From Escherichia phage pEC-M719-6WT.2, in sequence record OQ845958.1: DNA of 64,000 nt, one strand, 5' to 3'. Numbering within the stretch: position 1 is the first letter of the stretch; each line of letters opens with the position of its first letter. Shown in pieces: positions 19,628 through 28,975 of this stretch. The position numbers were made by a program, and so were the translations under genes. The notes under the pieces are model-generated. The model was not told the origin of the DNA. It saw nothing but the letters and a program-made list of their open reading frames with translations, and searched no databases.

Positions 19628-20209
19628 ATGAAACCAACTACTGTTCTGCAAATCGCATACCTTGTATCTCAAGAATCCAAATGTTGCTCCTGGAAAGTGG
19701 GAGCTGTTATTGAAAAGAATGGACGCATTATTTCTACAGGGTATAATGGTTCCCCTGCAGGTGGGGTCAACTGTTGCGAGCATGCGGAAGAGCAAGGTTG
19801 GTTACTGAATAAACCTAAACCTGTTCTCGTCCCCGGTCACAAGCCAGAATGTGTGAGATTCAGTAAGGTTGACCGTTTTGTATTGGCGAAAGCCCATCGC
19901 GAAGCCCATTCCGCATGGTCAAAGAACAACGAAATCCATGCTGAGCTTAATGCGATTCTGTTTGCAGCCAGAATGGGTTCGTCAATTGAAGGCGCTACTA
20001 TGTATGTGACGCTTTCTCCTTGCCCTGATTGTGCAAAGGCAATTTCCCAATCAGGAATCAAGAAATTGGTTTACTGTGAAACGTATGACAAGAATATTCC
20101 TGGCTGGGATGATATCCTGAAGAATGCGGGAATTGAGGTGTTCAATGTGCCTAAGCGTAGTCTAGACAAATTGAACTGGGAAAACATTAACGAATTTTGT
20201 GGTGAATAA
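19628..20209 (+). CDS. cd: dCMP deaminase
   Basis: 193 aa; cytidine/dCMP deaminase zinc motifs (CEHAE ... SPCPDCAK); length equals T4 Cd. Confidence 0.92.
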   Translation: MKPTTVLQIAYLVSQESKCCSWKVGAVIEKNGRIISTGYNGSPAGGVNCCEHAEEQGWLLNKPKPVLVPGHKPECVRFSKVDRFVLAKAHREAHSAWSKNNEIHAELNAILFAARMGSSIEGATMYVTLSPCPDCAKAISQSGIKKLVYCETYDKNIPGWDDILKNAGIEVFNVPKRSLDKLNWENINEFCGE

Positions 20210-20442
20210 TGAAATTTCGTCTAGTTAAATTTTCAGGTCTGAACTCAAAAGGTGAAAACCTGGTAGCCTTTTCAGTAGAATATAAAAAGTACTTTTTCTC
20301 TCGCTGGAAATCGTACTATAAATCTGAGTGGGTTCGCGCCGAAATGAAATATAAAACGGTACCTATTCTTGATAATTGTCACCGTCTATTGCGTGCTCTA
20401 AAAGAGCGTAATGCAACCACTATTAAAACTGTTTTGGAATAA
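20209..20442 (+). CDS. hypothetical protein
   Basis: 77-aa ORF overlapping the cd stop. Confidence 0.4.
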   Translation: MKFRLVKFSGLNSKGENLVAFSVEYKKYFFSRWKSYYKSEWVRAEMKYKTVPILDNCHRLLRALKERNATTIKTVLE

Positions 20443-20444
20443 TT

Positions 20445-20744
20445 ATGATTTTAACTGAACAAGAAACAATTCGCCTTCGCGAAAAAGTCAAGACTATCTT
20501 GTCTGTCGGCTTTCATGAAGTTCTGTTTGAAAAAGCAGATGGTAGCATCCGTCGTATGACTTGTACTCGCGACCTGGACCTGCTTCCATATAAAGAAATC
20601 CAGGCCCCTGGACCAGAAGTCAATAAAGAACCAGTTAGCTATATCCGGGTATTTGATACCAAGCTTAATGAATGGCGTTCATTCTGTTTCAATAAATTGA
20701 TTTCCGTGAATGGACTGCAGACCGAGACTCTGCTCGTCCTTTAA
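20445..20744 (+). CDS. hypothetical protein
   Basis: 99-aa ORF directly after the previous ORF. Confidence 0.4.
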   Translation: MILTEQETIRLREKVKTILSVGFHEVLFEKADGSIRRMTCTRDLDLLPYKEIQAPGPEVNKEPVSYIRVFDTKLNEWRSFCFNKLISVNGLQTETLLVL

Positions 20745-20769
20745 TGCTTCAAACAATGCATGCTATTAT
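20744..20769 (+). promoter_or_regulatory. candidate MotA-type middle promoter for gene 31
   Basis: aTGCTTCA, about 12 nt, TATTAT immediately upstream of the gene 31 start. Confidence 0.4.
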
Positions 20770-20775
20770 TAATAC

Positions 20776-21123
20776 ATGACCAAACAACATGGATTAAATA
20801 TGGAATTACCAATTAAAGCAGTAGGTGAATATATTATTTTGGTTTCTGAGCCAAAGCAAGCCGGTGATGAAGAAACTACGGCATCAGGTATCGTTATCGG
20901 AAAACTCCATCAGGGTGAAATCCCGGAGATGTGTGAAGTATTTTCGGTTGGTCCGGATGTTCCTGAAGGATTCTGCGAAGTAGGTGATTTGACTCCTCTT
21001 CCGGTTGGCAAGATTGCAAACGTTCCACATCCTCTGGTTGCTCTGGGGCTTAAGCAGGCTAAAGAAGTTAAGCAAAAATTTGTGACCTGTCATTATAAAG
21101 CTGTTCCTTGTCTTTATAAGTAA
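20776..21123 (+). CDS. 31: co-chaperonin (GroES-like) for capsid folding, gp31
   Basis: 115 aa; AVGEYxILVSEPxQAGDEE, [17 protein letters not shown], VTCHYKAxPCLYK match T4 gp31 from memory. True start could be the second ATG at 20800. Confidence 0.9.
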
Positions 21124-21294
21124 AATTAGCGTTATAAATAATAATATGGATTGGTTGATGTCATACAGAGCTTTGCTGGTGTATGGGGTTAGCTAATCCT
21201 AAACGGTGGACTACAACTGAGAGACTTGCCGAAAGGAAGTGAAATTCAGAAGAACGTGTCCACCAAATATTCACCTCATATTGAGGCTTCTAAA

Positions 21295-21549
21295 ATGTCT
21301 TTAAACAAACAATTACAACACGCTCTCGAACTGCAACGCACTGCATGGAATAACGGTCACGAAAACTACGGCGCATCTATTGATGTTGAAGCCGAAGCAC
21401 TGGAAATTCTGCAGTATTTCAAACATCTTAACCCGGTTCAAACCGACCTTCGCGCAGTGCTCGAAGCAAAAGATGAACTGAAATTTGCTAAGCCGCTGGC
21501 ATCTGCTGCCCGTAAAGCTGTTCGCCATTTTGTCGTAACCCTGAAGTAA
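21295..21549 (+). CDS. rIII: rIII-like protein (by position and size only; internal start of ORF-track 21226-21549)
   Basis: 84 aa from ATG with GAGG ribosome-binding site; T4 rIII is a small protein lying next to gene 31. No sequence memory to confirm. Confidence 0.35.
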   Translation: MSLNKQLQHALELQRTAWNNGHENYGASIDVEAEALEILQYFKHLNPVQTDLRAVLEAKDELKFAKPLASAARKAVRHFVVTLK

Positions 21550-21947
21550 GCTGTAGGTGATTCGCTACCTTAGTGCGGCTAGAAAATCGAGGAGCCGTCG
21601 AACCGTCTGATTAATGATTTGCGAATCATTATAGTTTTAAGACCCCGGCAGTTTTACGGTGTACCTCTTGAATGTTATTCTTATAGCGGCAAGTGCATGC
21701 TACCCCGAGGTGATGGCCAATCGGGAGTACGCCTCAAGGCCTATATATCCATCAGTATATATCTTATCCTCGAGAAATCGAACCCGGAACCTTTAAGCTA
21801 ACGGTGTGCAACAGATAAGAGCTATAAGGTATGATGACGAGGTTTATGGTTATCCTGTCGTTAAATATCCGAAACCTAATGTTCCCTTCGAGGGCTTGCG
21901 CAGGCAATGCCAATAAGTCCTGCATTCTATTTTAAAGAGAATTTAAT
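21550..21947. other. ORF-free, relatively GC-rich, hairpin-dense intergenic segment; candidate structured RNA or regulatory region
   Basis: No ORF of 60 aa or more that looks real on either strand; hairpins CGGCT..AGCCG and AATGATTtgcgAATCATT; composition differs from flanking coding DNA. Confidence 0.3.
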
Positions 21948-22109
21948 ATGGCTAAGAAAGAAGTTAAAGTTGTTGATGGCTCCTCCAAACGCGCTGGTTA
22001 CAAGCGTGCGTCCAACAAGCGAATCAATCAGGTGACTGATAAACTTCAGGCTCGTGCTCGTGCGGTATTGCGTGCCGATGCAGCTTGCTTTGGTAAGCCG
22101 AAAGCATAA
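21948..22109 (+). CDS. small basic protein (53 aa), not in ORF track
   Basis: ATG ... TAA frame encoding MAKKEVKVVDGSSKRAGYKRASNKRINQVTDKLQARARAVLRADAACFGKPKA; followed directly by a strong terminator. Confidence 0.4.
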   Translation: MAKKEVKVVDGSSKRAGYKRASNKRINQVTDKLQARARAVLRADAACFGKPKA

Positions 22110-22112
22110 GTT

Positions 22113-22143
22113 CAGGGACTCTTCGGAGTCCCTTTTTTATTTT
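22113..22143 (+). terminator. intrinsic terminator (GGGACUC-UUCG-GAGUCCC + U-tract)
   Basis: agggactcttcggagtcccttttttatttt. Confidence 0.7.
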
Positions 22144-22153
22144 CCATAAAGGG

Positions 22154-22183
22154 GTTTACAACAGGGTTGGTCCAGTGCATAAT
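22154..22183 (+). promoter_or_regulatory. early promoter cassette (GTTTACAA ... CATAAT)
   Basis: ggggtttacaa, 17 nt, cataatgattccatactgagtta; leader nearly identical to the cassette at 46373-46420. Confidence 0.5.
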
Positions 22184-22224
22184 GATTCCATACTGAGTTA
22201 CACAATAAAACACTGGAGAATAAA

Positions 22225-22593
22225 ATGAAAATCAATCTTAACTCATACATCAAAGGTAAAGACCACGACGGTTACAAAGCCATTGAAACTAAAGAGATGC
22301 AATGGCACTTGTATAAAGAACAGTTTGAATTTGTTGGTTGCATGACTCCTGAAGGTCCTTCTGATGACTTCTCCTGGAAAATTATGGTAACAAACTTTTT
22401 TACTGGTGATACATACGAACTGAAAACTTTGATTTTGGGTAAGATTCGTTGTAAGACCTATGAAGATGAAGAAACTGGTTATTCTGAAGATGTTACATGG
22501 TATCAAAATGGTCGCACCACTGCAGACCTTCTGATTGAAAAAATGAAAGCTAAGGGTGAATTAAATTTAGATAATTGGATTAAAGTCGCATAA
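22225..22593 (+). CDS. hypothetical protein
   Basis: 122-aa ORF with GGAGAATAAA ribosome-binding site. Confidence 0.5.
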   Translation: MKINLNSYIKGKDHDGYKAIETKEMQWHLYKEQFEFVGCMTPEGPSDDFSWKIMVTNFFTGDTYELKTLILGKIRCKTYEDEETGYSEDVTWYQNGRTTADLLIEKMKAKGELNLDNWIKVA

Positions 22594-22597
22594 AACA

Positions 22598-22640
22598 GTT
22601 TACTTTGGTACAGGTTATGATATTATAAACCTGTACCAAC
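22598..22640 (+). promoter_or_regulatory. early promoter embedded in a 12-bp inverted repeat (promoter plus stem-loop cassette)
   Basis: GTTTACt TTGGTACAGGTT atgaTATTATaa AACCTGTACCAA; -10 sits in the loop of a perfect 12-bp stem. Confidence 0.55.
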
Positions 22641-22664
22641 AAATGAAAACAACTGGAGAATAAA

Positions 22665-23030
22665 ATGAACTACATCAACTTTGAACGCAAATATGTTTCT
22701 AACTGCATCCCAGGTTCTTCTGAAGTTATTTGCTTGTGGAAACATCAAAACGGTTCAGTGTGTGAAATTGAACAGTATATGACTCCTAACTACGTTTATA
22801 TGCGATTTGAAAATGGTATCACTCTTTCAATCACGATGGAAGGTTCGGTATTCAAAATCGCATTAGATGATGACTTCCGTGAGCGTGATTTAGGGACTCA
22901 TCCTTGCTGGAATGGTGTTAATCGCAAGCTTCTGGTTAAAACTTGGATTCGTCACATCCTGAGCAACAAAGCAAAACCTGAACACCTGGAAGCAATCTTT
23001 GATGTAGTTCTTAATGAATTTGATATCTAA
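22665..23030 (+). CDS. hypothetical protein
   Basis: 121-aa ORF with GGAGAATAAA ribosome-binding site. Confidence 0.5.
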   Translation: MNYINFERKYVSNCIPGSSEVICLWKHQNGSVCEIEQYMTPNYVYMRFENGITLSITMEGSVFKIALDDDFRERDLGTHPCWNGVNRKLLVKTWIRHILSNKAKPEHLEAIFDVVLNEFDI

Positions 23031-23067
23031 TCTTAAATGGGGCGAAAGCCCCCTTGAGGAAAATACT

Positions 23068-23355
23068 ATGTTTATGACTACTTACTTTGATACACGTAAA
23101 AATTTCTGTGAAGTTGTTTTCTCTAAAAAAGGTCTTAATGTTCCTGCTGGGTGTGAACCAACACGTGATTCCATTAAGAACTATGTTGATGTAGTTTGCC
23201 CACTAGAATTCCGGACTGTTAATGGACGCGATACTCTGGCAATCACCAAGCTTAGACGCGACATTGATATTGCCCCAATTGCAGCACGTGAAATTAATTC
23301 ATCTGATATTAATGGCGGTAATGTTAAATCACACGGTTTCCAGATGAGGTTCTAA
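23068..23355 (+). CDS. hypothetical protein (internal start of ORF-track 23014-23355)
   Basis: ATG preceded by GAGGAAAATACT; 95 aa. Confidence 0.45.
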   Translation: MFMTTYFDTRKNFCEVVFSKKGLNVPAGCEPTRDSIKNYVDVVCPLEFRTVNGRDTLAITKLRRDIDIAPIAAREINSSDINGGNVKSHGFQMRF

Positions 23356-23549
23356 TGAAATTATTCTTATCACAAACTGTTCAGTTAAAAGGTGTGGGTA
23401 TTCCTGGAATGATTTCAAAGGTCCTGCCTGCGTTTAAATTAGGCAATACCCAAATTAAAGAAGCATATGCAGTCTTGTGGGTTGATGGAACTGAAGACGT
23501 TCGCATGGGCGGTGAGTTGTCTGTAATCAAATGTTTAAAGCGAGGATAA
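23355..23549 (+). CDS. hypothetical protein
   Basis: 64-aa ORF, start overlapping the upstream stop. Confidence 0.4.
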   Translation: MKLFLSQTVQLKGVGIPGMISKVLPAFKLGNTQIKEAYAVLWVDGTEDVRMGGELSVIKCLKRG

Positions 23550-23550
23550 T

Positions 23551-23763
23551 GTGTTTAAGAAACTGATTCAGAAAATTTTGGGAACAGAAATGGTCGAAGT
23601 TACTTATCGCGTGACTGATGTAAGTCCATGGGCCCGAAATATTGAACCATATACTAAAACAATTAAAATGCTGAAATCTGATGGCGGATTATCTATTAAA
23701 GACCGTCTACCTGGTTATGGTCATTGGGCTGATGTGGATATTATCAGTGTCAAAGATGTCTGA
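23551..23763 (+). CDS. hypothetical protein (apparent GTG start)
   Basis: 70-aa ORF with GAGGATAA ribosome-binding site 5-7 nt upstream of GTG. Confidence 0.4.
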   Translation: MFKKLIQKILGTEMVEVTYRVTDVSPWARNIEPYTKTIKMLKSDGGLSIKDRLPGYGHWADVDIISVKDV

Positions 23764-24214
23764 GTTAGAAATAAGAAGCAATTTCCCGTGGCCATCATGT
23801 GCATTAAGTAACTTTGCCAAATGGCCTTTTGTTATGGAGGGTATCCAGTTTGGAGGTCTTGAAGGCTTCCTGCAAGGGTGCAAGGTGAGAAATGTTGAAC
23901 AACAAAAACGTATATTTGGGATGTCCGGATTGGCCGCCCAGCAAAGTGGAAGAGCTTATGCAAGAGCTGCGGACCGTGGGACGCTTTTCTGGCTTGGAAT
24001 TCCCTTTTCAAGATACTCTGCAGCATGGAAAGAGTTGTATACAAATGCATATTTTGAAGCAGCGCTTCAAAACAAAGGATTCCGCGATGCGTTACAATCC
24101 ACAAAAGGCAAAGTTTTAAAGCATTCGATGGCGAGCCACCTTACTGTTCATGATACAATATTGACTGAACAAGAATTTATTGACATACTTAACCAATTGA
24201 GAGATGCATTATGA
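23756..24214 (+). CDS. NADAR/YbiA-like domain protein (putative ADP-ribose N-glycosidase)
   Basis: 152 aa from internal ATG; SNFAKWP ... EGxQFxxLEGFLQGCK resembles the SNFAAWP ... SEHYFQAQK core of E. coli YbiA as I recall it. Confidence 0.5.
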   Translation: MSELEIRSNFPWPSCALSNFAKWPFVMEGIQFGGLEGFLQGCKVRNVEQQKRIFGMSGLAAQQSGRAYARAADRGTLFWLGIPFSRYSAAWKELYTNAYFEAALQNKGFRDALQSTKGKVLKHSMASHLTVHDTILTEQEFIDILNQLRDAL

Positions 24215-25035
24215 AACCCGTTATTTTAACAGATATTGATGGCGTATGTTTGTCATGGCAGTCTGGCTTACCTTATTTCGCCCAAAAATATAATTTACCC
24301 CTGGAACATATCCTTAAGATGATTCAGGACGAAAAATTTGTGACCCCTGGTAAACTTTTCAATTGTGATGAAGAGTTAGGCGCGCAGTTAATTGAAAAAT
24401 ATAACTGTTCAGACTTTATTCGCTATTTGTCTCCTTATGCGGATGCATTAAGGGTTATCAATAACCTCAAAGAGCAATATGATTTTGTGGCTGTTACAGC
24501 CCTAGGTGATTCCATTGACGCACGCTTGAATCGTCAATTTAACCTGAATGCTTTGTTCCCTGGAGCGTTTAAAGAAGTGATGATGTGTGGCCATACAGCC
24601 TCTAAAGAGGATTTGTTTCAGAAGGCAAAAGACAAATATAATGTCGTTTGTTATATTGATGACCTTGCCCACCATTGCGACCATGCGAGTGAAATTCTCG
24701 AGGTTCCGGTTTATTGGATGGCCCGCGGCGAACGTGATGCTATTCCTAAAACAGCTTCCAAAGTTTTTAATTGGGACGATGTTGCTGGACAGCTTAAACT
24801 GAAACACAAAGATGAACCGGTCAAACCAGAATTCACCCCAGATGAACTCCGTAAACTGGAAGAGCTGTTTCGTGAAACTCGACGCCTTCAACAACAAATG
24901 CAGCAAGGCTGGCAGCCTGGTCAACCGTGGACTCCTGGATATAATCCAGCATATCCATATCAATATGGCCAGCGTGTAGGTACTGGTATTGAATACTGGT
25001 ACAATCAACCGACCGGTGGCCAAGGGGGTAATTGA
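24211..25035 (+). CDS. HAD-superfamily phosphatase-like protein with Q/P/G/Y-rich C-terminal tail
   Basis: 274 aa; HAD motif I ILTDIDGV and motif IV YIDDLAHH; low-complexity C-terminal 50 aa. Confidence 0.55.
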   Translation: MKPVILTDIDGVCLSWQSGLPYFAQKYNLPLEHILKMIQDEKFVTPGKLFNCDEELGAQLIEKYNCSDFIRYLSPYADALRVINNLKEQYDFVAVTALGDSIDARLNRQFNLNALFPGAFKEVMMCGHTASKEDLFQKAKDKYNVVCYIDDLAHHCDHASEILEVPVYWMARGERDAIPKTASKVFNWDDVAGQLKLKHKDEPVKPEFTPDELRKLEELFRETRRLQQQMQQGWQPGQPWTPGYNPAYPYQYGQRVGTGIEYWYNQPTGGQGGN

Positions 25036-25313
25036 TGTTTGTCGTTCATACTATTTCTGACCGTGGTCCAACTACCACGATGGATTACGGTCATGTTAAT
25101 CAGTTTATTCGTCATGTGAATCATAATTACTCGTTTGATATTAATCCGGCTAAAGATAACCCCGTTTGGCGTGAATGCGTTGAGCAAGGATTTATCTATA
25201 TTCACTTCATGACCAAAATGAAACCAGACGGGGCAACTAAATTTGTGTTCACTTATCATAAGCGGCTGGATTTGCTTTTGGAAGACGTGGCATATAATAG
25301 AGTCAACGACTAA
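25032..25313 (+). CDS. hypothetical protein
   Basis: 93-aa ORF between HAD-like gene and ligase. Confidence 0.4.
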   Translation: MMFVVHTISDRGPTTTMDYGHVNQFIRHVNHNYSFDINPAKDNPVWRECVEQGFIYIHFMTKMKPDGATKFVFTYHKRLDLLLEDVAYNRVND

Positions 25314-25323
25314 GAGGTGATTA

Positions 25324-26856
25324 ATGATTTTAGATATTTTAAATGAAATTGCTGCAACCGATTCTACTAAAGAGAAACAAGCTATCTTGGAATCGTATTC
25401 TGATAATGAAACCCTTAAACGCGTGTATCGTTTGACATATTCCAAAGGCATCCAGTTCTATATAAAGAAATGGCCAAAACCTGGGGCAACGACTCAAAGC
25501 TTTGGTATGTTGAATATCGATGATATGCTTGACTTTATCGAATTCACATTAGCCTCTCGCAAATTAACAGGTAATGCGGCAATCGAGGAATTATCTGGTT
25601 ATATTGCAGATGGTAAAAAGGCTGATGTTGAAGTCTTGCGGCGTGTGATGATGCGTGACCTGGAATGTGGCGCATCTGTATCGATTGCGAATAAGGTTTG
25701 GAAAGGTTTAATTCCTGAACAACCGCAGATGCTCGCTTCTTCTTATGATGAAGCTGGTATTGCTAAGAACATTAAGTTCCCGGCCTTTGCACAATTGAAA
25801 GCCGATGGCGCTCGGTGTTTTGCAGAAGTTCGCGGCGATGAGTTGGATGATGTTCGATTGTTATCCCGAGCCGGAAATGAGTACCTCAAGCTTGACCTCC
25901 TTAAAAAGGAATTGATTGAAGCCACCCGTGAAGCGCGTGAGAGACATCCTGAGGGCGTTTTAATTGATGGCGAGTTAGTATACCATGAACAGAAAATAGC
26001 TCCCCAGAATGACGGTTTGGGCTTCCTTTTTGACGATTCAGATGAGATTGCTCCTGCAAAAGAAACTGCTGAATCAAGAACCTTTTCAAATGGTATGGCA
26101 AACAAATCATTGAAAGGAACTATTTCTGCAGCAGAAGCTTCTTGTATGAAATTCCAGGTTTGGGATTATGTTCCGCTGATTGAAGTCTATTCTGATGTTA
26201 AGATTCTCAATCCGTTGAAATACGATGTGCGTTTTGCTGTTCTGGAAAAAATGATTGCAGATAACGTGGTGCTGCATGGTTTTGACCGCATGATTCTGAT
26301 TGAAAACCATGTTGTTAACAATCTTGATGAAGCGAAAGTTATCTATAAGAAATACGTGGATGAAGGCCTTGAAGGTATTATCCTTAAGAACATGGCATCG
26401 ATTTGGGAAAACAAGCGCTCAAAGAACCTGTATAAGTTCAAAGAAGTAATTGACATTGCAATGGAAATCATTGGATATTACGAGCACGATAAAGACCCGA
26501 ATAAGATTGGCGGTGTGGTGCTTCGTTCTTCTTGTGGTAAGATTACAAATAACTGTGGTTCTGGTTTTAAAGACACAACTCAAGTCAAAGATAAGAAAAC
26601 CAAAAAATGGGTTACTATTCCGATTGAGGAGCGTCATGAAATGGACCGTGAAGCCTTGATGGTTAAAGCACGTAAAGGTGAATTGGTTGGAATGATTGCC
26701 GACTGTGAATGTAATGGTTGGTTGACTTCCGAGACTCGTAAAGATAATACGGTTGCATTGTTCCTGCCGATTATCAAAGGGTTCCGTTCCGATAAAGACC
26801 ATGCAGACACATTCGAAGATGTATTTGGCGACTGGTCAAAGACTGGATTAAAATAA
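25324..26856 (+). CDS. 30: ATP-dependent DNA ligase
   Basis: 510 aa; N-terminus MILDILNEIAATDSTKEKQAILE and adenylation-domain lysine context match T4 ligase from memory; GAGGTGA ribosome-binding site. Confidence 0.96.
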   Translation: MILDILNEIAATDSTKEKQAILESYSDNETLKRVYRLTYSKGIQFYIKKWPKPGATTQSFGMLNIDDMLDFIEFTLASRKLTGNAAIEELSGYIADGKKADVEVLRRVMMRDLECGASVSIANKVWKGLIPEQPQMLASSYDEAGIAKNIKFPAFAQLKADGARCFAEVRGDELDDVRLLSRAGNEYLKLDLLKKELIEATREARERHPEGVLIDGELVYHEQKIAPQNDGLGFLFDDSDEIAPAKETAESRTFSNGMANKSLKGTISAAEASCMKFQVWDYVPLIEVYSDVKILNPLKYDVRFAVLEKMIADNVVLHGFDRMILIENHVVNNLDEAKVIYKKYVDEGLEGIILKNMASIWENKRSKNLYKFKEVIDIAMEIIGYYEHDKDPNKIGGVVLRSSCGKITNNCGSGFKDTTQVKDKKTKKWVTIPIEERHEMDREALMVKARKGELVGMIADCECNGWLTSETRKDNTVALFLPIIKGFRSDKDHADTFEDVFGDWSKTGLK

Positions 26857-26857
26857 C

Positions 26858-26880
26858 AAAAGGGCTTCGGCCCTTTTTTA
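26858..26880 (+). terminator. intrinsic terminator (GGGC-UUCG-GCCC + U-tract)
   Basis: aaagggcttcggccctttttta after the ligase stop. Confidence 0.7.
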
Positions 26881-26914
26881 GTATAAATACATCATATTTT
26901 ATAAGGAACCTATT

Positions 26915-28975
26915 ATGTCTGAACAATTAAATGAACTCTTTGACAAATATATCGAAACCTTCGGTTATCCTGTCATTAATATGAATCCAAAATACAAGGT
27001 CCCACAGGTTTGGCAATTCGGTGTTCCTGGGACCAATTCTCTTATGGCCCGTTTGATGCAATTCACGGGCAAAGAAACAGTTAAACAATATAAACGCGGT
27101 GATGCAATTGCCGAGGTATTTCTGTTATCCGGAACTTCACACGGTCATGCTGTTCCTCTGAAGGGTGGTTTAGGTGAAAAACCTCTTGATGCAATTAACT
27201 TGATTTTTACTACAGTCTGGGAAAGCATTAAACTAGGCAAACCTGATGTAGTCTTGTTCCGTTTCCCATCCAAAAAGATGAAAGGACAAGACCAAGCTAT
27301 TATTCGTATTATGAATCGACTGATTCAAATGAAAACCAGCGGACGTTATCATGTTCTTCCGAATGCTTCTGGCCTTGGTAAAAAGAACGCTTATGTAATT
27401 ATGTACAAAAGGGGTGTTGACCTACTTTCGGTTGATGGTATGCCACCAGTCCCTGAGAAATATAAAAAAGTCGAAACTAAAGTTGGTGATGTATTCACCA
27501 ATAAAGATAATGGTGCACAAGTATCCAAACAAGAAATTGCAGCCGAGATTCTGATTGACGCAGCAAACAAAAAGACCGATGCTGCTGTTGCCCAGAAAAC
27601 GAAAATCAGCCGCCGAGCTATTGCACAAGCCCAGTACGCCCCAAGTGATTCCGTGCCAGAAGGTTGGGACGAAATTGATGCAGAAGCTGCTAAGTTTAGT
27701 CGCCCGGCTACGGCAGAACTTATCGATGATTATGAAGAACTGGAAATTTTTGTTCGACCTTCCGAAACGAATACTATGGCTCGTATGCGCGCAGCAGATA
27801 CGGCTATGCGAGCAAATGGTGTTTGGAAAGAAGAAATTCGTGTTGAAGACTCTGACCCAATTTTTAACCGTATGCATCGCGAACTTAAACGTGCTCCAGT
27901 TGGTAGTATGAAGCAGATGCAGATTTTTGCCGAATCATGCGCAGAGATTCTTAACCTTCGCAAAGCCGCATTTATTGAAAGAAAAATGAATGATGCTCCT
28001 CCTAACGTGGATGCAGCCACTTATGCAGCCTCGCTCTGGGAAAAAGAATACACAAGCGCCATTCGTGTTGCAGTTAAAGACTTTGCTGAAGAAGCATCAG
28101 AAAATACTCTTAATTTCACGGCAGGGTATACTGACAACCGTTTCCATTATGGTCAGCGAGAAGCAATTGCAGATTATTGTGGAGCAAACTATGCCGATAT
28201 TAATAATTATTTGATGGGCAAATATTATGAAGAAGAAGCTGAATTCCTAAATCTAGACAGAGTTGTCGAAACAATTAAGGAATTGGATTCGGCCTTTGAA
28301 ATTGGCCATAAGTTGCCACCTAATACAACTCTTTGGCGTGGTCAATATTTAAACGTTCCTACATTTGATAAAATTAAGAAATCTAAATTATTTTATTTCA
28401 GGAACTATGTATCAACGTCGTTTAAACCGATTATCTTTGGTGGCTGGGTGGCGAACGTTGCTATGGCTGCAGTTCATCAGGACTATCGTGATGGGACATC
28501 TTTCCAGGCTGATGACGAAATTGTTTTACCAGATATGCCGGAAGCACGCCGCGACCACGTAATGATGCATGTTGGTTGGAAAATTTCTGGGGCGGACTTA
28601 ATTAACGTAATTGTTCCTGGGGAATTGTCAGGCAACCCATCCGAGCAGGAAGTTATTCTTCCTCGTGGGACTGTAGTTAAGATTACCAAAATTACTGATG
28701 CTTCGTATCAAGGAAACGCGAACGTCAAAATGTTGGAAGCTGATATCCAGACTACGGACCAACTGGATGAAAATGCAGTTATCTATGATGGTGATGTGTT
28801 GATGGAAACTGGTGAGCTTGTCGTTTATCAGGGCGAGGAAACAGAAGAGCCAGTAGAATCTGTTGACTTTGCATCGTTTGCATCCTCTGGGGTAACGAAG
28901 AAAGTCAATCAAGGGCTTGGTATTCTTGCTAGTTGTATTAATTTGGAAGCTATTCCTCCCAAATTCCTTTCATAG
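26915..28975 (+). CDS. alt: ADP-ribosyltransferase Alt (virion-packaged)
   Basis: 686 aa, immediately downstream of gene 30 and upstream of 54/48 as in T4; size matches T4 Alt (about 682 aa). Confidence 0.8.
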   Translation: MSEQLNELFDKYIETFGYPVINMNPKYKVPQVWQFGVPGTNSLMARLMQFTGKETVKQYKRGDAIAEVFLLSGTSHGHAVPLKGGLGEKPLDAINLIFTTVWESIKLGKPDVVLFRFPSKKMKGQDQAIIRIMNRLIQMKTSGRYHVLPNASGLGKKNAYVIMYKRGVDLLSVDGMPPVPEKYKKVETKVGDVFTNKDNGAQVSKQEIAAEILIDAANKKTDAAVAQKTKISRRAIAQAQYAPSDSVPEGWDEIDAEAAKFSRPATAELIDDYEELEIFVRPSETNTMARMRAADTAMRANGVWKEEIRVEDSDPIFNRMHRELKRAPVGSMKQMQIFAESCAEILNLRKAAFIERKMNDAPPNVDAATYAASLWEKEYTSAIRVAVKDFAEEASENTLNFTAGYTDNRFHYGQREAIADYCGANYADINNYLMGKYYEEEAEFLNLDRVVETIKELDSAFEIGHKLPPNTTLWRGQYLNVPTFDKIKKSKLFYFRNYVSTSFKPIIFGGWVANVAMAAVHQDYRDGTSFQADDEIVLPDMPEARRDHVMMHVGWKISGADLINVIVPGELSGNPSEQEVILPRGTVVKITKITDASYQGNANVKMLEADIQTTDQLDENAVIYDGDVLMETGELVVYQGEETEEPVESVDFASFASSGVTKKVNQGLGILASCINLEAIPPKFLS

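Follow-up and report, generated by a model that had tools for sequence, protein, structure and literature searches.

We analysed a 64,000-nucleotide (nt) stretch of Escherichia phage pEC-M719-6WT.2 (sequence record OQ845958.1), hereafter the window, and within it a block of eight short open reading frames (ORFs) between rIII–30.9 and gene 30, the DNA ligase gene. A sequence-only reading had described this block as an accessory island of about 3 kb. All eight ORFs lie on the + strand at 22225–25313 and, with start codons set by alignment to T4, encode 122, 121, 95, 64, 70, 152, 274 and 92 amino acids (aa), in agreement with the 64–274 aa first reported. We are highly confident that the block is the T4-type early cluster 30.8-30.7-30.6-30.5-30.4-30.3-30.2-30.1, vertically inherited and collinear with T4. 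It is an early-transcribed run of small accessory genes that includes a known counter-defence gene, and the cluster is already known as a standard part of T-even genomes, not a novel island.

Gene order and orthology with T4

A megablast search with positions 21100–25400 returned 975 phage records. The best match was Escherichia phage EAWsc9 (99.0% identity over the full length), followed by ECML-359, vB_EcoM_RZ, SP18 and VR7; those of these close relatives whose taxonomy was checked belong to the genus Gaprivervirus (Straboviridae, Tevenvirinae), and the window is a Gaprivervirus, a T4-like phage. The order on the + strand is cd, 31.2, 31.1, 31, rIII, 30.9, the block, 30 and alt, and the VR7 annotation gives names to all genes from 30.9 to 30.1. 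The genes of the locus are as follows, with identities to their T4 counterparts.

21948..22109, + strand: gene 30.9, immediately ahead of the block; basic protein of 53 aa; 70% to T4 gene product (gp) 30.9; phrog_1427, E 2.9e-26
22225..22593, + strand: gene 30.8, 122 aa; 40% to T4; Pfam Phage_30_8
22665..23030, + strand: gene 30.7, 121 aa; 91% to T4; Pfam Phage_T4_Gp30_7, E 1.8e-52
23068..23355, + strand: gene 30.6, 95 aa; 81% to T4 gp30.6 over 95/95 residues; phrog_2153
23355..23549, + strand: gene 30.5, 64 aa; 71% to T4 gp30.5; phrog_1690
23551..23763, + strand: gene 30.4, 70 aa, GTG start; 44% to T4 gp30.4; phrog_2042
23756..24214, + strand: gene 30.3 (adfN), 152 aa; 85.5% to T4 AdfN over 152/152 residues; Pfam Phage_30_3, E 9.5e-64
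23892..24119, + strand: 30.3′, an ORF of 75 codons nested in 30.3 (+1 frame) and annotated in T4; 64% to T4 30.3′
24211..25035, + strand: gene 30.2, 274 aa; HAD-superfamily phosphatase by motifs and predicted fold; 66% to T4
25035..25313, + strand: gene 30.1, 92 aa; 44% to T4 gp30.1; Pfam DUF3045, E 3.6e-18
25324..26856, + strand: gene 30, ATP-dependent DNA ligase; 70% to T4 gp30; bounds the block on its downstream side and is the final gene of the transcription unit

We compared the ORFs by BLASTP with proteins translated from the T4 genome (NC_000866). Each of the eight found its best T4 match in the gene at the same position, with E values from 5e-19 to 1e-132, at least 95% of the window ORF covered and identities, from 30.8 to 30.1, of 40, 91, 81, 71, 44, 86, 66 and 44%. 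The order between rIII/30.9 and gene 30 is also that of T4, so the statement that most of the ORFs have no T4 counterpart does not stand: all eight have a collinear orthologue. The T4 cluster (127205–130253 of NC_000866, on a map of opposite orientation) contains these eight genes in an identical arrangement, orientation included, with cd, 31.2, 31.1, 31, rIII and 30.9 upstream and the ligase gene and alt downstream, and it shares both early promoters, the terminator after 30.9 and the inverted repeat at the −10 of the 30.7 promoter. The two phages differ in the amino-acid identity of the encoded proteins, from 40% (30.8) to 91% (30.7), in alt.1, which lies between gene 30 and alt in T4 and is missing here, and in the rIII–30.9 spacer, which measures 244 nt in T4 against 398 nt in this phage, where a further module of 137 nt is present.

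Four of the proteins scored above Pfam gathering thresholds (PF06019, PF06919, PF08010 and PF11243, that is, Phage_30_8, Phage_T4_Gp30_7, Phage_30_3 and DUF3045), and 30.6, 30.5, 30.4 and 30.2 have no Pfam family, their matches being to PHROGs only; all nine ORFs, 30.9 included, have a PHROG match. PADLOC and NCBIfam scans of the same nine ORFs gave nothing meaningful. The G+C content of the block is 0.35–0.45, and neither G+C nor skews differ from those of the flanks. From 30.6 through gene 30, genes abut or overlap by 1–8 nt, and the block therefore reads as one early unit into the ligase gene, with intrinsic terminators of the unit located only before 30.8 and after gene 30.

Promoters and stem-loops

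The control elements of the unit are the following.

22114..22143, + strand: intrinsic terminator after 30.9 found by a terminator scan, GGGACUC-UUCG-GAGUCCC (22114–22133) and then a T-run; stem-loop half of the element discussed below
22154..22183, + strand: early promoter of 30.8, GTTTAC-N18-CATAAT, scored as TTTACA-17-CATAAT; 10/12 to consensus
22598..22626, + strand: early promoter of 30.7, GTTTAC-N17-TATTAT
22605–22616/22628–22639, + strand: inverted repeat with perfect 12-bp arms, one on each side of the −10 of the 30.7 promoter
25273..25300, + strand: MotA-type middle-promoter-like site from a pattern scan, TGCTTTT-N12-TATAAT, inside 30.1 and upstream of the ligase gene
26861–26881, + strand: terminator after gene 30, GGGC-TTCG-GCCC plus T6; the next + strand terminator

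Three early-type promoters had been proposed; those at 22154 and 22598 were recovered, and the third, an upstream element, was not, the stretch from 20069 to 22154 having neither a GTTTAC nor an early-type match. The strict T4/PST early pattern TTTACW-N16-18-NAYWAT occurs six times in the whole 64 kb, and two of these sites are in the block. We aligned the two intergenic regions from seven genera, T4 included. The −35 before 30.8 is GTTTAC in six of the seven, again including T4, and GTGTAC in Dhakavirus; before 30.7 the TTTAC core is present in all seven and GTTTAC in six. The ribosome-binding block GGAGAATAAAATG does not vary ahead of 30.8, and ahead of 30.7 six of the seven genera retain it; the stem of the 30.9 terminator is kept by compensatory changes in T4 and in Mosig-, Kanagawa- and Jiaodavirus.

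Within the window, an identical 18-nt block, ACTGGAGAATAAAATGAA, stands ahead of 30.8 (22211–22228) and 30.7 (22651–22668), and these are the only two sites in 21000–27000 with a GGAG Shine–Dalgarno (SD) sequence before a gene start. GGAG in the ribosome-binding sites of early genes is a target of the T4 RegB endoribonuclease; 30.8 and 30.7 may therefore be shut off by RegB. A late-promoter box, TATAAATA, lies at 26882, directly after the ligase terminator and ahead of alt (26861–26889).

The inverted repeat at the second promoter was correctly described as perfect and 12 bp long. By chance, the 3.9 kb searched should contain about 0.05 repeats of this kind, and six other genomes (VR7 and members of five other genera) have a perfect repeat of 8–13 bp in the corresponding position. 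Its arms fall into three unrelated sequences, GGTACAGG-type, TTGGGTGGT and GCTGATTGAGTGT, so it is the hairpin that is conserved and not its sequence. Because a transcript from the 30.7 promoter would start inside the right arm, the hairpin could form only in upstream read-through RNA or in DNA.

Composite elements of T4-like phages known as promoter-early stem-loops (PeSLs) were reportedly treated by Arbiol in 2010. In a PeSL an early promoter is directly preceded by a stem-loop, and a SD sequence and a start codon come after the promoter; PeSLs of T4-like phages are associated with cassette indels (Comeau, Arbiol and Krisch 2014, PMC4122927). The junction at 22114–22228 has this composition, with a terminator stem-loop, an AT-rich stretch, TTTACA-17-CATAAT (of the TTTACW-N17-TAYWAT type), GGAG and ATG; it is a PeSL, a place where T4-like phages gain and lose cassettes. 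In Shigella phage SP18, of the same genus, an extra 116-aa ORF, 30.6A, lies between 30.9 and 30.8 (L151 1195–1690; window 22110–22225), flanked by the near-identical terminator hairpins GGGACTC-TTCG-GAGTCCC and GACTCC-TTCG-GGAGTC, the second of which precedes the 30.8 promoter. This arrangement is the footprint expected of PeSL-mediated cassette exchange. The junction at 22598–22668 is arranged differently: its stem-loop does not precede the −35, and the arms occupy instead the promoter spacer and the stretch immediately behind the −10.

Host RNA polymerase would transcribe 30.8 from the promoter at 22154 immediately after infection and 30.7 through the ligase gene from the promoter at 22598, and the MotA-type promoter at 25273 would later reinforce ligase expression.

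Gene 30.3 encodes AdfN

The sequence-only reading had placed NADAR-like and HAD-like genes in the block, and both are there, as 30.3 (Pfam Phage_30_3) and 30.2 (by motifs and predicted fold). T4 gene 30.3 was renamed adfN (Johannesman et al. 2025, PMC11825919). The same study reported that T4 AdfN is a NADAR-family ADP-ribosylglycohydrolase that strips DarT1-placed ADP-ribose from phage DNA, that deletion of adfN makes T4 sensitive to DarTG1, that activity is reduced by E36A, by K43A and by the natural C-terminal truncation of RB69, that outside infection AdfN needs an additional T-even protein, and that on its own it fails in cells that express DarT1 or are infected by T5 or Bas25 (PMC11825919). 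Guanine-specific de-ADP-ribosylation in vitro by the T4 protein was reported in an independent study (Toxins 2024, PMC11125620).

The window protein belongs to the NADAR family, scoring 213.8 bits against Pfam Phage_30_3 (cut-off 36). Like T4 AdfN, to which it aligns without gaps, it has 152 aa, at 85.5% identity, and the catalytic E36 and K43 are unchanged (GGLE36GFLQGCK43V). The window protein also has an intact C-terminal helix, the element missing from the inactive RB69 allele; it is full-length and ends in EQEFIDILNQLRDAL with no frameshift. The difference from T4 amounts to 22 substitutions. A sequence search of PDB with gp30.3 gave no match. We infer with high confidence that gp30.3 has the same function as T4 AdfN; it would hydrolyse the ADP-ribose that host DarT1 attaches to guanine bases of phage DNA, and this removal would restore replication in DarTG1-carrying hosts.

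Gene 30.2 encodes a predicted HAD-fold phosphatase

All four HAD catalytic motifs (DxD, Thr/Ser, Lys and an acidic DD) are present in gp30.2. The protein has 116 homologues, of which every one with a named source comes from a T4-like phage; among 46 that were aligned, D8, D10, K132, D150 and D151 are invariant and T96 is at least 90% conserved. The AlphaFold2 (AF2) model has a mean predicted local distance difference test (pLDDT) score of 87.8, with at least 89 over residues 1–200 and a further confident segment at 210–233, and falls below 55 from about residue 241. A Foldseek search of this model against PDB gave 100 matches at E ≤ 1e-3, and the best 50 of the 100 are almost all HAD enzymes. 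The top match is 2jao, mouse cytosolic 5′(3′)-deoxyribonucleotidase (E 3.8e-8, probability 1.00), and the deoxyribonucleotidase group has the lowest root-mean-square deviation (rmsd) among the matches.

The 5′(3′)-deoxyribonucleotidases (cdN/mdN; 2jao, 2i7d, 1mh9; Staphylococcus epidermidis 3bwv) share with gp30.2 a Rossmannoid HAD core with a helical cap and the DxD nucleophile, Thr, Lys and DD motifs, and they are the best structural matches of the model, with template modelling scores, TM(target), of 0.62–0.70 and rmsd of 4.3–5.3 Å. The differences are that gp30.2 is only 14–19% identical to them, has no match to Pfam HAD or NT5C models, and carries an aromatic- and proline-rich tail of about 75 residues with a terminal motif, which the cellular enzymes lack. 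On motifs and predicted fold, gp30.2 is a HAD-superfamily phosphatase over residues 1 to about 200. Its activity would be that of a Mg-dependent aspartyl-phosphate phosphatase, with (deoxy)nucleoside monophosphates as the most likely substrates.

The tail (residues ~200–274, 24811–25035) is disordered, rich in Q, P, G, Y and W and variable in length, and ends in a motif, GIEY-xx-N-x-PT, that is conserved from T4 to Klebsiella phages and resembles a short docking motif; the tail probably docks the protein to a partner. With its catalytic motifs intact and its gene translationally coupled to adfN, gp30.2 could be the additional T-even protein reported for AdfN. A metagenomic protein (P0020) has the 30.2 HAD domain fused to a 30.1-like DUF3045 domain in place of the gp30.2 tail.

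The remaining small proteins

The most conserved protein of the block is gp30.7 (91% to T4, versus 70% for the ligase), and its family is very small, with 24 representative clusters in 1.84 billion proteins. A zinc site suggested by its Cys/His pattern was rejected, as C33 and C81 are not conserved in divergent homologues. A 1332-aa protein (P0187) matches gp30.7 in six stretches; its sole hit is a PKD domain, which gives no functional lead. In P0127, one of the metagenomic relatives of gp30.7 (P0125 is another), the N-terminal two thirds of gp30.7 is naturally fused to the C-terminal part of gp30.3 (PF06919 plus PF08010). The fusion implies that a phage in the wild has lost 30.6–30.4 and shows that there are settings in which the three can be dispensed with.

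The predicted structure of gp30.8 is confident, and its fold has no significant match in PDB. Literature searches on gp30.1, gp30.2, gp30.6, gp30.7, gp30.8 and gp30.9 found nothing relevant.

Distribution across relatives

We searched the region upstream of the ligase gene in a panel of 12 Straboviridae with the window proteins. The block ORFs found were as follows.

Gapriver-, Tequatro- and Dhakavirus: all eight, collinear
Mosigvirus: seven, with an unrelated 204-aa ORF in place of 30.6
Kanagawa- and Jiaodavirus: 30.8, 30.7, 30.2 and 30.1 (in Jiaodavirus also 30.6), with other ORFs inserted and 30.5–30.3 absent
Krischvirus: only 30.3
Pseudoteven- and Lazarusvirus: 30.3 and 30.2
Tulane- and Schizotequatrovirus: only 30.2

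In every one of the last five genera the ligase gene adjoins the retained 30.3 or 30.2. Prevalence was assessed by tblastn (E ≤ 1e-5; E ≤ 1e-20 for the ligase) across 50,697 phage records, and matches were found in 1035 records for 30.8, 994 for 30.7, 740 for 30.6, 686 for 30.5, 718 for 30.4, 1510 for 30.3, 1439 for 30.2 (HAD domain), 917 for 30.1 and 1766 for ligase gene 30. No ORF of the block is an ORFan, each being present in at least 686 genomes.

The region is thus moderately plastic across the family and stable among T-even relatives. The description of it as a hyperplastic, anti-defence region fits in its counter-defence gene, adfN, and in the variation of gene content at family scale; in the four Escherichia coli Tevenvirinae genera, seven or all eight of the ORFs are constant. 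Comparison across relatives also bears on the opposite view, that all of the ORFs are conserved housekeeping genes: all are indeed conserved, and only one has a demonstrated role.

The rIII–30.9 spacer

The upstream element of the earlier reading directed attention to the spacer outside the block coordinates.

21550..21947, + strand: rIII–30.9 spacer, a 398-nt non-coding mosaic

It matches 998 phage records, mostly at 90–96% identity, and consists of three modules that occur in different combinations in different genera. Module B (21681–21817, 137 nt) is about 95% identical to sequences of Jiaoda-, Kanagawa- and Karamvirus, genera in which protein identity to the window is only 50–70%, and is absent from T4 and VR7. 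Across 13 distinct copies of this module, 98.3% of cells pair, against 21–38% in slid controls, and six pairs are changed on both sides, against a shuffle mean of 1.6 (a count reached in 0 of 500 shuffles). In module A, a long hairpin, four pairs are compensatory. Module C contains a hairpin and a loop-to-downstream helix that co-varies in three haplotypes; for this helix, mononucleotide shuffles were not significant with the T4-type sequence, and it therefore rests on the three co-varying haplotypes only. The last hairpin of the spacer pairs with the SD sequence of 30.9, in both of two unrelated sequence versions.

Folded as one RNA, the whole 398-nt spacer gave z = −0.15, the signal emerging only after the modules were separated and covariation was considered. 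An Rfam scan of 21000–25500 at E ≤ 1 returned only a chance-level Atu_C8 match (21 bits, cut-off 50), a tRNA and tmRNA scan of the spacer found none, the spacer has no match in the E. coli genome, and a 20-mer of module B has none in bacterial and archaeal genomes. A loose gapped pattern scan of IMG/VR for module B yielded mainly chance matches and was discarded; two specific patterns recovered the same 15 IMG/VR contigs, and no more divergent copies were therefore collected. A literature search on non-coding RNA near rIII found nothing relevant.

We consider the spacer a candidate structured RNA leader of gene 30.9 with a SD-sequestering final hairpin. Given the small number and close relationship of the sequences, the evidence is suggestive and not conclusive. 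This RNA is possibly new, and it is the only item of the analysis to which that applies.

Annotation in public records

Records that cover the positions corresponding to window 20209–25313, including PQ341120, OL362041, MW233709 and others, contain unsupported or implausible names. For ORFs this small, '1,4-alpha-glucan branching enzyme' (30.9), 'tail fibers protein' (31.1 and 31.2) and 'putative baseplate hub' (over the 30.4 position in UPEC01) are implausible. Two further labels were tested and did not hold, 'DUF4222 domain-containing protein' for 30.1 and 'Imm63 domain-containing protein' for 30.8 (PQ341120); in the latter case gp30.8 matched only Phage_30_8 even at E ≤ 10, and there was no PDB fold match. 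In EAWsc9 and SHSML-52-1, adfN was left unannotated. The annotation can be corrected for 30.3, to AdfN, and for 30.2, to HAD-family phosphatase.

Discussion

The reading of the block as an inherited, early-transcribed T4-type cluster with a counter-defence gene has several points to its debit. Functional evidence is confined to two of the eight proteins, with none for the other six, and AdfN activity in this phage rests on the 85.5% identity to the T4 protein. Both promoters are consensus matches only, a simple sigma-70 scan shows no enrichment here (19 sites, against 16.5 in shuffles), and the second promoter fails the textbook PeSL architecture, being a variant in which the stem-loop overlaps the promoter. 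Against curated sequence models, gp30.2 had no match in Pfam at E ≤ 10 or in NCBIfam at E ≤ 0.1, and its HAD membership therefore rests on motifs and predicted fold; single-sequence or profile searches of PDB sequences reached a deoxyribonucleotidase at E 0.27 only, and the substrate is a guess from fold rank.

The most serious alternative is that the block is mainly a nucleotide- or DNA-metabolism adjunct of the ligase gene and not a counter-defence locus, with the small ORFs encoding accessory factors of gp30.2, and gp30.2 itself either shaping nucleotide pools as a deoxynucleoside monophosphate phosphatase or cleaning DNA ends so that they can be ligated. Of the ORFs, 30.2 does show the most constant linkage to gene 30: in 11 of the 12 panel genomes, with KVP40, Aes508, Acinetobacter phage Konradin and RB16 among them, the ligase gene follows it at a distance of no more than about 0.6 kb. 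Gene 30.2 is also co-transcribed with genes that precede the ligase gene and coupled to them in translation, and the fold of its product is closest to 5′(3′)-deoxyribonucleotidases. However, the sole experimentally characterised member of the block, 30.3/AdfN, is a counter-defence enzyme (PMC11825919), nothing ties 30.8–30.4 to DNA metabolism, and Krischvirus has 30.3 beside the ligase gene without 30.2. We judge this alternative unlikely.

That some of the small ORFs are chance open frames in AT-rich sequence is still harder to sustain for the block genes proper, and as a whole we give this explanation little credence. It applies best to 30.3′, which lies wholly inside 30.3 in another frame, is open in five genera and annotated in T4 and VR7, and is truncated by a stop in Mosigvirus. 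Third-position changes in 30.3 are not reduced where the two overlap (25/76, versus 12/45 before the overlap), and 30.3′ is doubtful as a coding sequence and probably not under selection as a protein. The same explanation might extend to 30.5 and 30.4, but both have PHROG matches (E 8e-30 and 2e-34, respectively), each occurs in about 700 phages at 44–100% amino-acid identity, and their positions are tightly abutting and frame-consistent.

The view of the block as a hyperplastic accessory island, put together recently through horizontal transfer from mostly lineage-specific ORFs without T4 counterparts, is very improbable: the replacement of 30.6 in Mosigvirus, the absence of 30.5–30.3 and the extra ORFs in Kanagawa- and Jiaodavirus, the reduction to 30.3 and/or 30.2 in Krisch-, Pseudoteven-, Lazarus-, Tulane- and Schizotequatrovirus, the extra ORF at the PeSL junction in SP18 and the metagenomic 30.7–30.3 deletion fusion (P0127) would all suit it, but the comparison with T4 refutes it through collinear orthologues for all eight ORFs, gene for gene, and conserved intergenic control elements, and it is further opposed by G+C and skews like those of the flanks and by the presence of each ORF in 686–1510 phage genomes.

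With the block read as an inherited T4-type cluster, it matters little as such, since its only characterised gene, adfN, is already published and its promoter–stem-loop junctions belong to a described class. More tentatively, and at well below an even chance, the operon may hold at least one further counter-defence or takeover factor beyond AdfN and, separately, 21550–21947 may be an undescribed modular RNA leader; the best candidates for such a factor may be gp30.2 and gp30.8. For this phage, an intact adfN predicts plating on DarTG1 hosts. Two leads could matter more than the block itself: a possible partnership of gp30.2 with AdfN, and the conserved rIII–30.9 spacer, if it is a new phage RNA element.

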